Source of the DNA: a virus
DNA: 47,507 nt
Direction: 5' to 3' (one strand)
IMG/VR virus record: IMGVR_UViG_3300043640_000025
Coordinates: 1-47,507 of that record
Position 1 is the first letter of the stretch, and each line of letters begins with the position of its first letter. The translations under genes were made by a program, and so were the position numbers. A model generated the notes under the pieces. It was not told the DNA's origin and did no database searches. It saw only the letters and a program-made list of their open reading frames with translations. Below are positions 8,129 through 47,507 of this stretch, piece after piece.

Positions 8129-8150
8129 CCCGCTCGCAGCGGGTTTTTTT
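8129..8150 (+). terminator. Rho-independent terminator of the cI operon
   Basis: cccgct-cgc-agcggg stem-loop followed by T7. Confidence 0.7.
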
Positions 8151-14662: not shown

Positions 14663-14976
14663 TGGCAAGGTTTGTGAAGAAACCGGTTGTGGTCGAGGCC
14701 ATACAGTTTACCCAGTCCATGGCGGAAGGTCATGAGCCTCTTCCGGAAGCCGTAAGCATGTGGCGAAGGAGTCTCGGGCCTGATGGGCATTTCCCTGAGT
14801 ATGCGAATGATGGGAAGTACCTGGTTAATTACTCAACCCAGCACAAGCACTCTATCCGCACACTTGAAGGCGATATGGATGTGCAAATAGGTGACTGGAT
14901 CATCAGGGGCGTGGCTGGCGAATTATATCCGTGCAAGCCCCATATCTTCGAGCAGACCTATGAGGCCACCCCATGA
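14662..14976 (+). CDS. Hypothetical protein
   Basis: Start MARFVKKPVVVEAIQF; the ATG overlaps the upstream TGA by 1 nt. The C-terminal GDWIIRG..GELYPCKPHIFEQTYE resembles a small conserved phage family. Confidence 0.55.
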   Translation: MARFVKKPVVVEAIQFTQSMAEGHEPLPEAVSMWRRSLGPDGHFPEYANDGKYLVNYSTQHKHSIRTLEGDMDVQIGDWIIRGVAGELYPCKPHIFEQTYEATP

Positions 14977-15013
14977 CCACCTCGCGCTTCGTTGATTGTT
15001 TGGGGGTGGTGGG

Positions 15014-15733
15014 GTGAGCCGAATTGAAGTCATTGGCAACGCCACTCTTTACCTAGGTGACTGCCGAGAGATTATGCCGACACTTCCTTCGGTGGGGGCG
15101 ATCATCACGGACCCACCGTATAACGTGACGGAAGTAAACGGTAGAGACGGTACGAAGCCTGGAAAGGTTAAGAGGAAGGACGGGTCTTACGCTGAGGTGG
15201 TTAGAAACTTTGGCGATTGGGATAGGAACTTTTCCGTCGACTGGTTTCTAAATCTCGCATTCGAGATATTGCCTCATCGGGGAAATCTCATAGCGTTTAC
15301 ATCTGACAGGCTTTTGTCTAATTACATATCTGGTCCGATGAAGCATATGCGGACCATGCTTTGGAGGAAGACTAATTCGCCAGGATCGTTCAATGCGAAT
15401 TACATATCGTGTGTCGAATTCGCTGTTTGGCTAAGCAAAGAAGCCCCTGGCGTCTTCAACGGATCTCGATCATTGCAGCCTATATTCGACTACCCGAGCG
15501 TTCACGGTAAACATCGATTACATCCAACACAAAAACCATTGAAGCTTATGGACGATATTGTTCGACTTCATACGAATGAGTCATTCGCCGTCCTTGACCC
15601 ATTCATGGGAAGCGGAACAACTGGCGTTTCTTCACTGTCGGCAGGAAGAACATTCATAGGCATTGAGTCATGCCGGGAGCATTTTTACGACGCATGTAGG
15701 CGCATTGAGTCATGCGTCACCACTCACGCCTAA
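15014..15733 (+). CDS. DNA methyltransferase (beta-class N6-A/N4-C), orphan
   Basis: DPPYN motif IV near the N-terminus and DPFMGSGTTG motif I near the C-terminus. GTG at 15014 with a GGTGG RBS; the ORF track starts it at TTG 14996. Confidence 0.85.
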   Translation: MSRIEVIGNATLYLGDCREIMPTLPSVGAIITDPPYNVTEVNGRDGTKPGKVKRKDGSYAEVVRNFGDWDRNFSVDWFLNLAFEILPHRGNLIAFTSDRLLSNYISGPMKHMRTMLWRKTNSPGSFNANYISCVEFAVWLSKEAPGVFNGSRSLQPIFDYPSVHGKHRLHPTQKPLKLMDDIVRLHTNESFAVLDPFMGSGTTGVSSLSAGRTFIGIESCREHFYDACRRIESCVTTHA

Positions 15734-44890: not shown

Positions 44891-45522
44891 GCGACCAATG
44901 CCGCTGCGTTGTAAGTCTTCACCGTCGCCAAGGGGCTAGACGGCGCGGTAGTGGCGCGGCTCATAGCCATGGCGTAAGCGCGATCAATGACGCCCGTATC
45001 GTCCATCTGCGGACCTGGCTTCGAGCCGAGGACGCGGCGCGTCCAGCCATTACCGAAGTCCACGAAAGTAGGCAGGGACCGGAGGAACGACATTCGGGCA
45101 TTGCACATCGCGTCGGACAGGGCAGTCGGTCCATAGCTGGCCTTGTATCTCAAAGCCGAGGCTATCGTCACTGACCCGACGTGACCGTCCTGCACGGACC
45201 CCACGATGCTCTGAAGCACCTTGGATGCCCTCGATACGCCGGAGTTAACCGCGAAGTCGAAGACCGCATAGTCGGCACCAGCCGGGAGGTCATCTGCCCG
45301 CACCAGGTCCCAGTAACGCCACCTGTAGATGGCTTGAAGCTCAGCATCGGTAATCAGCTTGACCGATCGCCGCGGGAGTCCGCGCTGATCTCGGTCGTCG
45401 TCGTATACCGCCTGGGTGACACCGCGCATCGTCGCTCCGCCCGGGTCCCTTGGGTTATCAGACCAGCCACCCTCGTAGACCAGCGTCAGATTGAGGCTGG
45501 GGGCGAAGTTTGAGGCGGTCAT
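44887..45522 (-). CDS. Endolysin (GH108 N-domain plus PG_binding_3)
   Basis: YEGGWSDNPRDPGGATMRGVTQ is the GH108 signature. Confidence 0.85.
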   Translation of the reverse strand: MTASNFAPSLNLTLVYEGGWSDNPRDPGGATMRGVTQAVYDDDRDQRGLPRRSVKLITDAELQAIYRWRYWDLVRADDLPAGADYAVFDFAVNSGVSRASKVLQSIVGSVQDGHVGSVTIASALRYKASYGPTALSDAMCNARMSFLRSLPTFVDFGNGWTRRVLGSKPGPQMDDTGVIDRAYAMAMSRATTAPSSPLATVKTYNAAALVA

Positions 45523-45607
45523 GGCTCATTTCATGCTTGACGTGCGCAGTCGCAAATTTGCGAATACGCTCCGCTTGCCCAGTTGCGGGCGCTAAGGGGA
45601 GTGAGGC

Positions 45608-45733
45608 ATGGCCACTAAGAAACAGGCTGCATACCACTACATTTATCGCGACGCCAAGACAGGAAAGCTCGTCACTAAGGAGTACGCGGCGAAACATCCA
45701 GCCACAACAGTGAGGGAACGAGTCCCGAACTAA
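45608..45733 (+). CDS. Small conserved-looking ORF (41 aa), opposite strand
   Basis: AAGGGGAG RBS. MATKKQAAYHYIYRDAKTGKLVTKEYAAKHPATTVRERVPN. Followed by a strong hairpin. Confidence 0.45.
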   Translation: MATKKQAAYHYIYRDAKTGKLVTKEYAAKHPATTVRERVPN

Positions 45734-45750
45734 GCCTCATGGAAACGCGA

Positions 45751-45775
45751 AAGCCCCGCTTTTTGGGCGGGGCTT
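45751..45775. terminator. 9-bp GC-rich hairpin between convergent genes (possible bidirectional terminator)
   Basis: aagccccgc-tttttgg-gcggggctt. There is no clean U-tract on either side. Confidence 0.4.
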
Positions 45776-45839
45776 CGCTTGGTGGTCAGTTTGACTAGGC
45801 GCGAGTTTGACCGATAAAAGTCTAGACGCAAGTACTATT

Positions 45840-46565
45840 TTACGCCGCGCGCGAATGGAGAATCTCTGCCAACCGCGTAATACCCTTCGGAGTCACACGT
45901 ACACGCTCGACCGATTTCTCGGTTCCATCCAGGCGCAGCACGACTACGATCTTGTGAGTGAGCAGGCCGGCCTTGGTTTTGTCGCTGTATGCCAGCCAGT
46001 CGCCGCCCTGATGCTTGTAGATCCAGCCGCGGGCGTGCATGGCCTGGATGAACTTCCGCTCCGGGACGTTGCATGCCTTTGCCGCTTCGCGAAGACTGAA
46101 AGATCCCTCCGAGTCAGATAGGCGCGTCAAGGCAACCACCTTCGGCCCCATCTCAGCCACCTGCCCTTCCAGCTTCTTGTTCTCGTCGGCCAGGTCGGCA
46201 GCAAGACGCAATGCCTCCGGCAAGGATTGAGGAATGGCGAAGGCTGGGGCAGCGGCCTTGTGCGCCAGATCGTAGAAGGCGTGGACGAGTCGACGCTTGA
46301 ATGCGCGGATGACCTCGGTATTCCGGAGATAGGTCATAAGGAGTGTGGCCTGTTGCTCGTTCAGCACGGCGAACTCAACATTTCCGCCGCCATGCTGCCC
46401 CTCTGGCCTTGGTCGGATTTCAAATCTGACCAAGCCGAAGGAATCGAAATCGTCCAAATAAGTACGGACCAATTTGATGACACTGGCATGTTCGTTCTCT
46501 GTACCCTCGGCAATCGCCAAGGAATCGGTGAACGGCGCACCATTCCGCAGAGTGACGAGATTCAT
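45840..46565 (-). CDS. Antirepressor (Rha N-domain plus KilAC/Ant C-domain)
   Basis: FTDSLAIAEGTENEHASVIKLVRTY is Rha-like. The C-terminal half LREAAKACNVPERKFIQAMHARGWIY is KilAC-like. Confidence 0.75.
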   Translation of the reverse strand: MNLVTLRNGAPFTDSLAIAEGTENEHASVIKLVRTYLDDFDSFGLVRFEIRPRPEGQHGGGNVEFAVLNEQQATLLMTYLRNTEVIRAFKRRLVHAFYDLAHKAAAPAFAIPQSLPEALRLAADLADENKKLEGQVAEMGPKVVALTRLSDSEGSFSLREAAKACNVPERKFIQAMHARGWIYKHQGGDWLAYSDKTKAGLLTHKIVVVLRLDGTEKSVERVRVTPKGITRLAEILHSRAA

Positions 46566-46972
46566 GCCTCCACCCTCCCGCCAAGGTCCCGCAGACGGCT
46601 GACCAGTACGCGATTTCGCTCGTAAGCGGCTTCCAATTGAGCGCGGAGGCGTGCATTTTCGGCATCACCCTTGATCTGGTCGCTCGAGATGGCCTGTCTC
46701 ACGTCCGCGTAGATGGCGTCGACGTCCGCGATCATGGCGATGTTCTTCGCCGTCTGCCTGGACTGCTCGTCCATATCTCGACCGGTGAGGACCTTTGCCC
46801 GCCAACAGACCTCGTCGAGGCGAGTCCAGAGATTCATGAATAGCTCGCGGATCGCATCGATACTAGGCGGAGCCCGGTTTTCGCTGGCGGCAAAGCCGAT
46901 CCACGCGATATCCGATGCTGGCCGATGGTTGCCCGTGTTGACGGCGGACATGGCTTGGGTGACAATTTCCAT
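46562..46972 (-). CDS. Hypothetical protein, translationally coupled to the antirepressor
   Basis: 136 aa. GCAGGAG SD 6 nt upstream. ATGA overlap with the antirepressor start. Confidence 0.6.
   Translation of the reverse strand: MEIVTQAMSAVNTGNHRPASDIAWIGFAASENRAPPSIDAIRELFMNLWTRLDEVCWRAKVLTGRDMDEQSRQTAKNIAMIADVDAIYADVRQAISSDQIKGDAENARLRAQLEAAYERNRVLVSRLRDLGGRVEA
46938..46966 (+). promoter_or_regulatory. Candidate antisense promoter (Psar-like)
   Basis: TTGACG - 17 nt - GACAAT on the plus strand, inside the 5' end of the minus-strand gene. Confidence 0.4.
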
Positions 46973-47032
46973 TAGAAACTCCTGCTAAGGGTTTTTTGTA
47001 ATCCGACCCGGCGCGCCAACGCCGGGTTTTTT
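46973..47032 (+). ncRNA. Candidate ~60-nt antisense RNA (sar-like)
   Basis: Bounded by the promoter above and a plus-strand terminator: cccggcg-cgccaa-cgccggg (47007-47026) plus T6 (47027-47032). Complementary to the SD and the 5' edge of the start codon of 46562..46972. Confidence 0.4.
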
Positions 47033-47043
47033 ATGCCTGTCGT

Positions 47044-47223
47044 TCAGGCCTTGATTGCTCGGTTATCCCGCAACCCGAGAGCCGCTTTGAGCCGGTCATT
47101 AATGACCCAGTTCAAGCTTCTGTCTTCTTGTTTTGCCACTTCAGCGGCCCTCACTCGAACTTCGTCGTCCATCCTCAGCGGATAGGGGGCTGGCTGTTTA
47201 CGGCTTGATTTTTCCTCACTCAT
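47044..47223 (-). CDS. Arc-family ribbon-helix-helix repressor (59 aa)
   Basis: PYPLRMDDEVRVRAAEVAKQEDRSLNWVINDRL aligns with the P22 Arc/Mnt motif F.(F/L)R.P.E....L...A..NGRS.NSE. GGAG SD. The track ORF to 47340 is too long. Confidence 0.7.
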   Translation of the reverse strand: MSEEKSSRKQPAPYPLRMDDEVRVRAAEVAKQEDRSLNWVINDRLKAALGLRDNRAIKA

Positions 47224-47250
47224 GGCTGTCTCCAAGAATCTAGACTCTAT

Positions 47251-47277
47251 TTGACGCCCACATGATGTGGATGTCAA
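47251..47277. promoter_or_regulatory. 27-bp palindromic operator candidate with divergent -35 boxes
   Basis: TTGAC-gc-CCACAT-g-ATGTGG-at-GTCAA. Minus-strand promoter TTGACA (47277-47272) - 17 nt - TCAAAT (47254-47249) points at the arc-like gene. Confidence 0.5.
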
Positions 47278-47322
47278 GTGGATTCTTTGAATAGCATCAT
47301 GGTGACGTCCACAATCTCCCGC

Positions 47323-47507
47323 ATGAGTGATCGTCACCAAATCAAGCCCTACCCACTCCGTCTACCAGAGGACTTAAGGGGGTCTCTGGAAGCTTCGGCT
47401 GGTCGTGTCGGCCGAAGCCTGCATGCCGAAATCGTCTCTCGCCTACAGGAAAGCTTCGCGCCTCTTGAAGTTGCCCGACCGCAAGAAGCCATGCACATGG
47501 TCGAGGT
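47323..47507 (+). CDS. Mnt/Arc-family RHH repressor, 5' part (continues at 3..245)
   Basis: MSDRHQIKPYPLRLPEDLRGSLEASAGRVGRSLHAEIVSRLQESF. Divergent from the arc-like gene. No SD. TTGAAT (47287) - 17 nt - CACAAT (47310) would give a near-leaderless mRNA. Confidence 0.6.
   Translation, partial: MSDRHQIKPYPLRLPEDLRGSLEASAGRVGRSLHAEIVSRLQESFAPLEVARPQEAMHMVE
47381..47507. repeat. Terminal direct repeat, copy 2 (identical to 1-127)
   Basis: See copy 1. Confidence 0.95.

Follow-up and report, generated by a model that had tools for sequence, protein, structure and literature searches.

[quoted passage not shown] In the annotated P22 record (BK000583), the sar promoter occupies 15097-15125 (-) and the sar RNA 15021-15090 (-), with the ant ATG at 15091; in Psar, the distance from the end of the -10 element to the A of the ant ATG is 6 nt, and the start of the RNA adjoins the start codon. 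Another small RNA of this kind is OOP of phage lambda (77 nt; cited in PMC3134472 and PMC7067206). Like the candidate described below, OOP is short, cis-antisense and equipped with a promoter and an intrinsic terminator of its own, and it opposes the mRNA of a lysis-lysogeny regulator, but its module and position are different. OOP reaches across the 3' end of cII and, as Krinke and Wulff reportedly found in 1987, works by RNase III cleavage and not at the ribosome-binding site (RBS). The c4 RNA of phages P1 and P7 (P1 immI) blocks a RBS upstream of the antirepressor operon; it lies on the same strand and in the same transcript as its target, is processed from there, and pairs through short complementary boxes. 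Our candidate has in common with c4 that it would be an RNA regulator at a RBS in an antirepressor operon, but it lies on the opposite strand with a promoter and a terminator of its own instead of being processed from the target operon, and it would be fully complementary to its target.

Here we analyse a 47,507-nt stretch of viral DNA (IMG/VR record IMGVR_UViG_3300043640_000025), referred to below as the window. We propose, with a probability that we put at about 0.65, that its plus-strand positions 46938-47033 form a gene for a small antisense RNA of the kind of P22 sar, set within a module that resembles immI.

Gene organisation of the immI-like module

The module runs in the order mnt-like gene, palindromic operator, arc-like gene, orf136, Rha-ANT antirepressor gene and terminator, which is an organisation of the P22 immI type. 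The arc-like gene (47044..47223, -; stop codon at 47044-47046), the first of its operon, encodes a 59-aa ribbon-helix-helix repressor with the Pfam Arc domain that is 45% identical to an Arc-like protein of a Stenotrophomonas prophage. Divergent from it is a mnt-like ribbon-helix-helix gene (47323..47507, +) which, since the two ends of the circular contig overlap by 127 bp, continues past the window end and runs on into window positions 128 to ~209. Between these two genes lies a palindrome with 22-nt arms (47242..47286), the presumed operator, which overlaps the divergent arc (TTGACA-17-TCAAAT, - strand) and mnt-like (TTGACG-17-TCAAGT, + strand) promoters.

The initial annotation had taken the gene after arc to be the antirepressor, which proved not to be so. 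That gene is orf136 (46562..46972, -; 136 aa), with the Shine-Dalgarno (SD) sequence GCAGGAG at 46985-46979 and its ATG at 46972-46970; the antirepressor gene ant (45840..46565, -; Phage_pRha and ANT/KilAC domains) comes next, its start overlapping the orf136 stop by 4 nt (ATGA). The GC1/2/3 values of orf136 (0.63/0.45/0.72) are coding-like, and ten remote homologues were found, with no match in Pfam or PHROG; an AlphaFold model computed with no alignment is helical and of low confidence (pLDDT 49.6). The gap between arc and orf136 measures 71 nt (46973-47043). On the far side of ant, a hairpin in the convergent ant/orf41 intergenic region (45751..45775) has a tail that is U-rich on the minus strand only, and the arc-orf136-ant operon hence probably ends there.

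The G+C content of the genome is 60%, and the closest relatives of its Arc and Ant proteins come from prophages of Stenotrophomonas and of betaproteobacteria; the host is no enterobacterium. In blastn searches of 45800-47507 against phage genomes, the Rha domain of ant alone matched (actinophage) and the intergenic region had no match, while tblastn of Arc against phages gave no match either. Word-index protein searches with orf136 and Arc as queries returned self matches only, and locus scans for close relatives in viral contigs gave none that was syntenic.

Candidate promoter, terminator and predicted RNA around the arc-orf136 gap

On the plus strand, a -35 hexamer, TTGACG (46938..46943, +; within orf136 codons 10-12), is separated by a 17-nt spacer from a -10 hexamer, GACAAT (46961..46966, +; within codons 3-4, ATT GTC), which ends 6 nt from the A of the orf136 ATG (46972). 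This sigma70-like promoter, which the initial annotation had put forward, is exact in the sequence, and our consensus scan agrees with it: scored at 9/12, it is the sole promoter-like site on either strand of 45500-47507. Scanned by equal criteria over its 2 x 47.5 kb, the whole window has 4 such sites, a density of 4.2e-5 per nt per strand, and the number expected by chance is about 0.006 for such a site at most 150 nt upstream of the terminator at 47005-47032, and about 1e-4 for one at the exact offset from the orf136 start codon. When the 85 SD-preceded ORF starts of the window were scored for an antisense promoter, that of orf136 came top with 9, the next best reaching 7. The candidate is identical to the mnt-side promoter in its -35 sequence (TTGACG) and 17-nt spacing, and its -10 hexamer relies on the rare Ile codon ATT (38 ATT vs 166 ATC in ten long genes). 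That GACAAT is a mediocre -10 (4/6) and the promoter as a whole only 9/12 counts against a sar-like reading.

The terminator (47005..47032, +) was likewise found where it had been annotated, with a stem at 47005-47028 whose core (47007-47026) consists of cccggcg (47007-47013), the loop cgccaa (47014-47019) and cgccggg (47020-47026), and with T6 at 47027-47032; our scan gave 9 pairs, 7 of them G-C, and a loop of 6. We took as marks of an intrinsic terminator a G+C-rich stem, a short loop and at least 5 T directly downstream on the transcribed strand. The plus strand has T6 and a folding energy of -16.8 kcal/mol; in the sense direction there is no T-run and TCGGATTAC comes after the hairpin, which is hence terminator-like on the plus strand only.

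A transcript running from the promoter to this terminator would be ~59-61 nt long (46973..47033, +), its start (46973-46975) being estimated from the position of the -10 and its 3' end from the T-tract. The RNA so predicted folds at -24.1 kcal/mol (z = -2.85), with a 5' hairpin (46974..46996, +) that carries the anti-SD CUCCUGC (46979-46985). It would indeed be complementary to the SD and abut the start codon, as originally suggested, given that CTCCTGC at 46979-46985 on the plus strand lies opposite GCAGGAG, and the SD is 6 nt upstream of the ATG.

Comparison with P22 sar

The P22 geometry claimed at the outset stands as regards the offset of 6, the span of the gap, the cover of the SD and the fold, but not as regards the target, which is orf136 instead of ant. 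Both elements are part of a mnt/arc/downstream-gene module and both antisense promoters lie within ~35 nt of the 5' end of the gene that follows arc, with the same offset of 6 between the end of the -10 (46966 in the window) and the A of the ATG (46972). Both RNAs, as predicted for the window, span the intercistronic gap and cover the SD, and both are predicted to form a 5' anti-SD hairpin and a 3' terminator hairpin. At the sequence level, the location in the gap, the placement of the antisense promoter, the SD complementarity and the two stem-loops are thus those of the P22 sar functional type; that type also has ant as its target, whereas here orf136 lies directly opposite.

The two differ in other ways. 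The window RNA would be shorter (~60 nt, compared to 68-70 nt for P22 sar), their stem sequences are unrelated, and the window terminator has a canonical T6 where that of P22 sar reads ...CUUCAACUUU. The window RNA would end 11 nt before the arc stop, which P22 sar overlaps, and it would target an orphan 136-aa gene between arc and ant, in contrast to ant itself in P22. Moreover, the window element is a prediction, whereas P22 sar is reported as experimentally detected. The Rfam sar model (RF00262; threshold 43 bits) recovered the P22 positive control with 97.8 bits at 15023-15090 and matched P22 alone, finding nothing in window region 45500-47507 even at E <= 10 and nothing in the 15 related loci (0/15) at E <= 1, so that the window element would be an analogue or a very remote homologue of sar.

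Recurrence of the arrangement at other loci

Eight other loci with an arc-gap-gene order, L094 and P22 among them, have the hairpin, an antisense promoter offset of 6-9 nt and a predicted two-hairpin RNA of 60-80 nt. A gap hairpin together with an antisense -10 whose end is 6-9 nt away from the ATG was observed at L006, L021, L078, L083, L086, L089 and P22, and the fold with a 5' anti-SD and a 3' terminator hairpin is predicted in the window, L006, L021, L094 and P22. In the window and at most arc-gap-gene loci, the U-tract is better on the antisense strand than on the sense strand. As candidate sar-like units we list L094, L006, L021, L078, L083, L086, L089 and L085, all of them unannotated predictions in metagenomic or prophage DNA that differ in stems and target genes; in these units arc or ant is followed by a hairpin, the 5' hairpin holds the anti-SD, the antisense promoter has an offset of 6-9, and the lengths are 60-85 nt. 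The downstream genes differ too, that of L006 (orfX) having no similarity to orf136 and those of several other loci being ant-like. A short motif, AACCCT(T)AGCA..GGA, is all that the window has in common with some of these units (L006 and L078).

Antisense-promoter scores of six non-P22 loci plus the window were higher than those of 945 background ORF starts (Mann-Whitney p = 5e-9), of 780 SD-preceded starts (p = 3e-8) and of 19 gapless arc-adjacent genes (p = 0.0016), p-values that are optimistic because the offset window of 5-9 was picked after the first cases had been seen. Five orf136 homologues outside the arc context provide a natural control, and score 4, 0, 0, 0 and 0 for an antisense promoter. 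Counting against a sar-like reading, arc overlaps ant in the closest Arc relatives, which have no sar-like element. Locus L001 is identical to the window and hence carries no comparative information.

The syntenic locus L094 consists of arc, a 46-nt gap, an orf136 homologue and ant. Its antisense-oriented terminator has a 13-bp stem whose sequence is wholly unlike that in the window, and its antisense promoter, TTGACT-17-CATTGT, has the same offset as in the window, with TTGACT at the position of the window -35. The block around the orf136 RBS (about -30 to +9) is ~86% identical in L094, compared to ~40% for the flanking arc coding DNA. The candidate -35 overlaps a Val-Asn dipeptide conserved in the orf136 family, and its conservation in L094 may therefore be driven by the protein.

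Covariance models

A covariance model (R2) was built from L094, L006, L078, L086 and L089, with the window left out. Its best match in the window, ranking first of 11, was 46970-47035 (+), aligned to model positions 1-83 with 15.2 bits and an E of about 0.008, a weak match given the rough calibration and a training set that includes the syntenic L094. The second-best match was the 45751..45775 hairpin, to the terminator part of the model only. R2 also recovered P22 sar, at 15015-15093 (-) with 20 bits. An earlier leave-one-out model (R1; 7 sequences, terminator-only consensus, poor alignment, 0.58 bits per position) missed the site, and the support from R2 is hence modest. Furthermore, R2 matches the antisense strand of other RBSs, at Stenotrophomonas-type loci where no antisense promoter was found, indicating that a hairpin with an upstream A-run followed by a RBS can occur with no recognisable promoter.

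Alternative explanations

That no plus-strand gene could use the terminator, as the initial annotation held, is too strong a statement. A conserved 41-aa gene, orf41 (45608..45733, +; homologues 78-85% identical), lies 1.27 kb upstream on the plus strand, and read-through from it, or pervasive antisense transcription, could give rise to long plus-strand transcripts antisense through ant and orf136. The terminator might then serve mainly to stop these and insulate the arc/mnt control region, the promoter-like site being incidental. The hairpin of orf41 itself is followed in the window by TTCGCTTGG, a plus-strand U-tract weaker than the TTTTCTTC of its relatives L104 and L105, and the consensus scan found no other plus-strand terminator between 45733 and 47005; the R2-type hairpins upstream of other RBSs with no detectable antisense promoter also fit this explanation. 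We nevertheless consider it unlikely, as it accounts neither for a rare promoter-like site at the P22 Psar offset, nor for the recurrence of this offset in L006, L021, L094 and P22, which are orf41-free, nor for the missing promoter at orf136 homologues outside the arc context. Stopping long transcripts is, besides, compatible with the sar-like reading, as an extra role of the same terminator.

If the hairpin acted instead on the minus-strand mRNA, with the A-run as an RNase E-type site, no antisense RNA would be made. Its part might be in processing or stability, protecting the arc 3' end or the orf136-ant 5' end, or it might be a leaky attenuator by which the arc:ant ratio is set. In favour of this, the sense-strand hairpin is just as stable (-17.5 kcal/mol), in the window it lies 11 nt past the arc stop and in L094 and P22 it overlaps the arc end, and R2-like combinations of hairpin and RBS exist with no antisense promoter. 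However, the sense strand has no U-tract and so no intrinsic terminator, whereas the antisense T6 is perfect and the antisense U-tract is the better one in most loci. The equivalent P22 hairpin is annotated as the sar terminator, the sar RNA having been reported as detected (PMC13397905), and the enrichment of promoters would be left unexplained, which together lead us to regard an mRNA element as quite unlikely. Even more improbable, in our view, is a coincidence in which a generic GC hairpin with a T-run met a chance 9/12 promoter, neither strand having a function. Each element by itself is a weak predictor, our scan expects 0.7 promoter-like and 1.8 terminator-like sites in a 2-kb stretch, and the exact 28-nt hairpin pattern was matched once in viral contigs, in an unrelated microvirus-like contig, a match that we judged to be a chance generic terminator. 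Against this, the joint placement of the elements is improbable, the arrangement is kept in the syntenic L094 despite a different stem sequence, and R2 ranks the site first in the genome.

Proposed mode of action and significance

In the sar-type reading, transcription from a sigma70-type promoter within orf136 codons 3-12 would begin on the opposite strand, at the base right beside the orf136 start codon, and run as far as the intrinsic terminator, 11 nt short of the arc stop. The product would be a two-hairpin RNA of ~60 nt, the full complement of the orf136 leader including the SD, which would pair with the arc-orf136-ant mRNA and block ribosome binding at orf136; the RNA duplex of ~60 bp would probably be cut too. 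Expression of orf136 would decrease, as would that of the antirepressor through the 4-nt overlap and the shared mRNA, making orf136 the likely direct target of the candidate RNA and ant a likely indirect one. We infer promoter firing, RNA accumulation, repression and an effect that reaches ant from the sequence elements, whose geometry and recurrence in related and unrelated loci are described above together with the predicted fold.

More tentatively, and with less than even odds, the window element could belong to a wide, hitherto overlooked class of sar-type antisense RNA cassettes, in which an RBS block is combined with an antisense promoter in the first codons and a terminator in antisense orientation. 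Such a class may extend over Arc/Mnt-antirepressor modules of beta- and gammaproteobacterial phages, be linked to P22 sar and stand before varied cargo genes (ant, orf136 and other orphans). Were this so, immI-type immunity would include control of the RBS by antisense RNA as an ancestral and portable part, and this would be no peculiarity of P22. A functional equivalent of sar, unrelated in sequence, in a 60% G+C phage related to Stenotrophomonas and betaproteobacterial prophages would by itself show that the three layers of control of antirepressor operons (Mnt, Arc and antisense RNA) are a design conserved across distant phages. Annotators would gain a positional rule, namely a gap hairpin in antisense orientation together with an antisense -10 that ends 6-9 nt into the gene following arc, that would catch regulators missed by homology searches, and orf136, an orphan under the same control as ant, would become a candidate for a part in the choice between lysis and lysogeny. 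Should no such RNA be made, what is left is an ordinary hairpin.

Other candidates and hairpins in the window

A 91-aa plus-strand ORF (46713-46988) was considered as a user of the terminator and discarded, having non-coding GC1/2/3 values (0.43/0.58/0.74) and no SD, and lying antisense to a gene, orf136, that has homologues. We also rejected the view that the hairpin and orf136 form a conventional moron that brings its own terminator, as the terminator is upstream of orf136 and on the opposite strand. Rfam matches to anti-hemB and Sr006 were sub-threshold chance alignments to the terminator hairpin and assign it to no family. Elsewhere in the window, four other hairpins have an equal stem-plus-T-run style, and two of them, compared with the ORF list, each come after an ORF of the same orientation.

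A candidate antisense RNA opposite the orf136 start

The plus strand carries a -35 hexamer TTGACG (46938-46943), a 17-nt spacer and a -10 hexamer GACAAT (46961-46966), followed by the complement of the Shine-Dalgarno (SD) sequence GCAGGAG (46979-46985) and a terminator with stem cccggcg/cgccggg (47007-47013/47020-47026), loop cgccaa and a T6 tract (47027-47032). Opposite, on the minus strand, lie the start codon of orf136 (46972-46970), a 136-aa gene, and the stop codon of the arc-like gene preceding it (47044-47046). All these elements, from which the initial annotation had proposed a sar-like antisense RNA over the ribosome-binding site (RBS) of the gene downstream of arc, were confirmed in the sequence at its coordinates. 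It was also right about orientation: on the minus (sense) strand TCGGATTAC follows the hairpin, which hence looks like an intrinsic terminator solely on the plus strand; its predicted stability (~ -17 kcal/mol) is alike on both strands. In the consensus scan the terminator has 9 pairs, 7 of them G-C, and TTGACG-17-GACAAT is the sole promoter-like site on either strand of 45500-47507. The best-supported reading of 46973-47033 (+) is a predicted cis-antisense RNA of ~60 nt, and from sequence we put the probability of the mechanism at about 0.65. The RNA would pair with the orf136 leader and mask its SD, which should lower orf136 expression; we infer that expression of the antirepressor gene ant, next in line, would also be reduced via the shared mRNA and the overlapping stop and start codons. 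Since a GGGAGG belonging to ant itself lies 8 nt before the ATG, translational coupling is perhaps only partial.

Such sites are rare in the window. By the tool's criteria, scanning all 47.5 kb yielded only four promoter-like sites on the two strands combined (4.2e-5 per nt per strand), and ~0.006 promoters are expected within 150 nt upstream of the terminator at 47005. When antisense promoters were scored by matches to both hexamers plus an extended -10, at an offset of 5-9 from the start codon, the orf136 start ranked first among the window's 85 SD-preceded ORF starts (9 versus 7 for the runner-up). The window scan found four other hairpins built like GACCCGC...GCGGGTTTTTT. Two of them, at 8129 (+) and 39190 (-), were compared with the ORF list, and both lie 3' of a co-oriented ORF; the 47005 hairpin is surrounded by opposite-strand genes.

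Genes of the immI module

The window ends are identical over 127 bp (1-127 and 47381-47507), which indicates a circular contig, probably a complete phage genome of ~47,380 bp. The local genes are a P22-type immI module. A mnt-like ribbon-helix-helix gene runs from 47323 (+) across the circular junction, and the minus strand carries, in order, the arc-like gene (59 aa, Pfam Arc), a 71-nt gap, orf136 and ant, which encodes Phage_pRha and ANT domains and begins in an ATGA overlap with the end of orf136. With this order, the direct target would be orf136 and not ant, which corrects the check advised in the initial annotation, to measure antirepressor translation. A palindrome with 22-nt arms (TTGACGCCCACAT/ATGTGGATGTCAA, 47242-47286) overlaps the promoter of the arc-like gene and the divergent one of the mnt-like gene, and related inverted repeats reach 47339; these are presumably Arc/Mnt operators. 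A hairpin at 45751-45775, given its U-rich tail on the minus strand only, probably ends the arc-like/orf136/ant operon.

The GC content of orf136 at the three codon positions (0.63/0.45/0.72) is coding-like, and a full HMMER search retrieved ten remote homologues; a single-sequence structure model was unusable. The small family (P0003-P0012) shares a conserved L-R-E-x-F-x-x-L-W-x-R-L-D-E-V-S-W-R-A motif and a C-terminal helix, in settings as diverse as after integrase, replication modules and immI. Between ant and the endolysin gene lies orf41 (45608-45733, +), encoding a conserved, Lys-rich protein of 41 aa. Its homologues in other contigs (78-85% identity) invariably immediately precede lysis genes, in opposite orientation. 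In relatives the orf41 hairpin is a terminator in both directions (A6...TTTTCTTC); its plus-strand U-tract is degraded in the window. Another hairpin (212-236), between the mnt-like gene and a convergent 138-aa gene, contains the 10-mer GGGTCGGATT, also found at 46997-47006 in the spacer beside the terminator in the arc-orf136 gap, which may be coincidence.

Comparison with P22 sar

Earlier work describes P22 sar as an antisense RNA of ~69 nt repressing Ant (PMC3134472, PMC2629481, PMC13397905). In the P22 genome (BK000583), with arc at 14861-15022, the sar RNA (15021-15090, -) adjoins the ant start codon (ATG at 15091) with its 5' end, and the -10 of its promoter (15097-15125, -) ends 6 nt from the A of that ATG. 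The same offset in the window (46966 versus 46972) bears out the P22-like geometry originally suggested, and the predicted folds follow one plan, a 5' anti-SD hairpin and a 3' terminator hairpin. The P22 promoter (GTGTTA-17-TATACT) matches consensus at just 8/12 positions, scores 9 with the TG of its extended -10, and was missed by the tool's consensus scan, so the window's 9/12 is not weak by this standard. The Rfam sar model (RF00262) gave 97.8 bits on P22 and zero matches in 45500-47507 of the window at E <= 10, which places the window element outside that family as defined. The antisense-RNA kind is already known; the novelty lies in a predicted counterpart of P22 sar in function that acts on another direct target (orf136), has a canonical terminator, bears no detectable relationship in sequence to the Rfam family and belongs to a non-enterobacterial, high-G+C phage. 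There are also signs that comparable units are widespread in Arc/Mnt-antirepressor modules.

Arc-gap-gene loci elsewhere

Because close relatives of orf136 and Arc were not found in the word-indexed protein database, related loci were gathered via Ant, Arc and Mnt-like proteins. The nearest Arc relatives, in Stenotrophomonas-type prophages (L007, L060-L066, L068, L069), have arc overlapping ant (GTGA), with neither gap nor antisense element between them, and immI is wholly absent from relatives that share the lysis genes and orf41. Together these observations indicate that the gap-plus-orf136 arrangement is a derived insertion in a mobile "ant moron".

The arc-gap-gene layout recurs in seven further loci (L006, L021, L078, L083, L086, L089 and P22). 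All have a gap hairpin and an antisense -10-like hexamer (TATCAT, TATGAT, TAACAT, TAGTAT, TAGCAT, GATAAT and TATACT, compared with GACAAT in the window) whose last base lies 6-9 nt from the A of the ATG; a TTG-type -35 accompanies each, at a distance of 16-18 nt. The downstream genes differ: that of L006, orfX, showed no similarity to orf136, and several others are ant-like. In L021, 1.6 kb contains just two promoter-like sites, Pant (12/12) and the antisense site (10/12, extended -10). Antisense-promoter scores reached at least 8 in six of the seven non-P22 arc-gap loci (window included) and at 1.8% of 945 background ORF starts (Mann-Whitney p = 5e-9; p = 3e-8 against 780 SD-preceded starts and 0.0016 against 19 gapless genes following arc), p-values that are optimistic because the offset window was fixed only after the first cases had been seen.

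Gene order matches that of the window in L094-L096, which carry the orf136 homologue P0010: YbcO and a 138-aa gene come before mnt-like and arc, and after a gap of 46 nt follow P0010, Bro-N/ANT and lysis genes. The 13-bp hairpin of L094, which overlaps the stop codon of arc, differs wholly in sequence, and the tool likewise calls it a terminator for the antisense strand alone; the antisense promoter, TTGACT-17-CATTGT, also has an offset of 6. The target-gene block from about -30 to +9 is ~86% identical between L094 and the window, versus ~40% for arc coding DNA. A Val-Asn pair conserved in the orf136 family overlaps the -35, so conservation of this hexamer is not by itself independent evidence. 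Five orf136 homologues not preceded by arc had antisense-promoter scores of 4, 0, 0, 0 and 0.

Several side observations concern these loci. In some loci where arc and the next gene are at most 13 nt apart (L084, L087, L002), a good antisense promoter (for example TTGCAG-16-GATAAT) nevertheless lies in the first codons of that gene, and an antisense RNA from it would overlap the 3' end of arc. A motif, AACCCT(T)A(G/C)CA..GGA, directly precedes the start codon of the post-arc gene in several otherwise unrelated loci (window 46981-46993 (-); L006 2411-2426; L078 (-) 1554; L086 (-) 1591; L094 2481-2494) and can form a CCU-loop-AGG mini-hairpin in both RNAs; its AACCCT(T)AGC form occurs eight times in ~0.97 Mb of strand positions, three of them at the post-arc spot. 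The antisense-strand hairpin after arc in L086 and L089 (GAAGCCCTGAAGC...GCTTCGGGGCTTC) and the terminator of P22 sar (L004 15021-15058) have their outer stem, GAAGCCCTGA/GGGGCTTC, in common, which hints at real homology; the Rfam sar model did not detect the L086/L089 hairpin.

Covariance models

A first model (R1), built on seven poorly aligned sequences including P22 and with structure for the terminator only, missed the window site. R2, a two-hairpin consensus trained on L094, L006, L078, L086 and L089 with the window excluded, matched 46970-47035 (+) at full length as the top hit of both strands (15.2 bits, E ~0.008, E-values being approximate as calibration was rough), the genuine sar RNA in P22 (15015-15093, -; 20 bits) and the predicted unit of L083 (16.5 bits).

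Further R2 matches lie opposite the RBS of other genes. Stenotrophomonas-type prophages have an R2-like hairpin with an antisense U-run (L007 3671-3760 (-), homologous in L061-L064, L068 and L069) just 5' of a conserved 127-aa gene (MANNSVP...); an antisense promoter was looked for at these sites and none was found. The preceding 84-aa ORF (L007 3479-3733) looks CsrA-like by eye. Counting lineages, by our own grouping, rather than loci, ~6/11 independent R2 matches have a promoter score of at least 7, versus 7.7% of background starts; the hairpin-plus-RBS layout is thus broader than its promoter-bearing subset.

Alternative explanations

Given this breadth, the hairpin may in some loci serve as an insulator or act on the sense strand, there perhaps as a processing or stability element of the mRNA. 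The terminator may instead chiefly stop read-through from plus-strand orf41, whose terminator keeps only part of the U-tract in the window phage. Both roles can coexist with an antisense RNA; a third possibility is that the whole arrangement is coincidental. None of the three accounts for the recurrent, position-specific promoter.

R2 matches after ant

Strong full-length R2 matches also lie antisense to the RBS of the gene following ant, not arc (L085 540-620 (+); L082 948-1036 (+); L022 3306-3385 (-)), which suggests that the sar-like cassette also controls other genes. The L085 match reaches 64.6 bits and has an antisense promoter, TTGGCA-17-GATAAT, with a score of 10.
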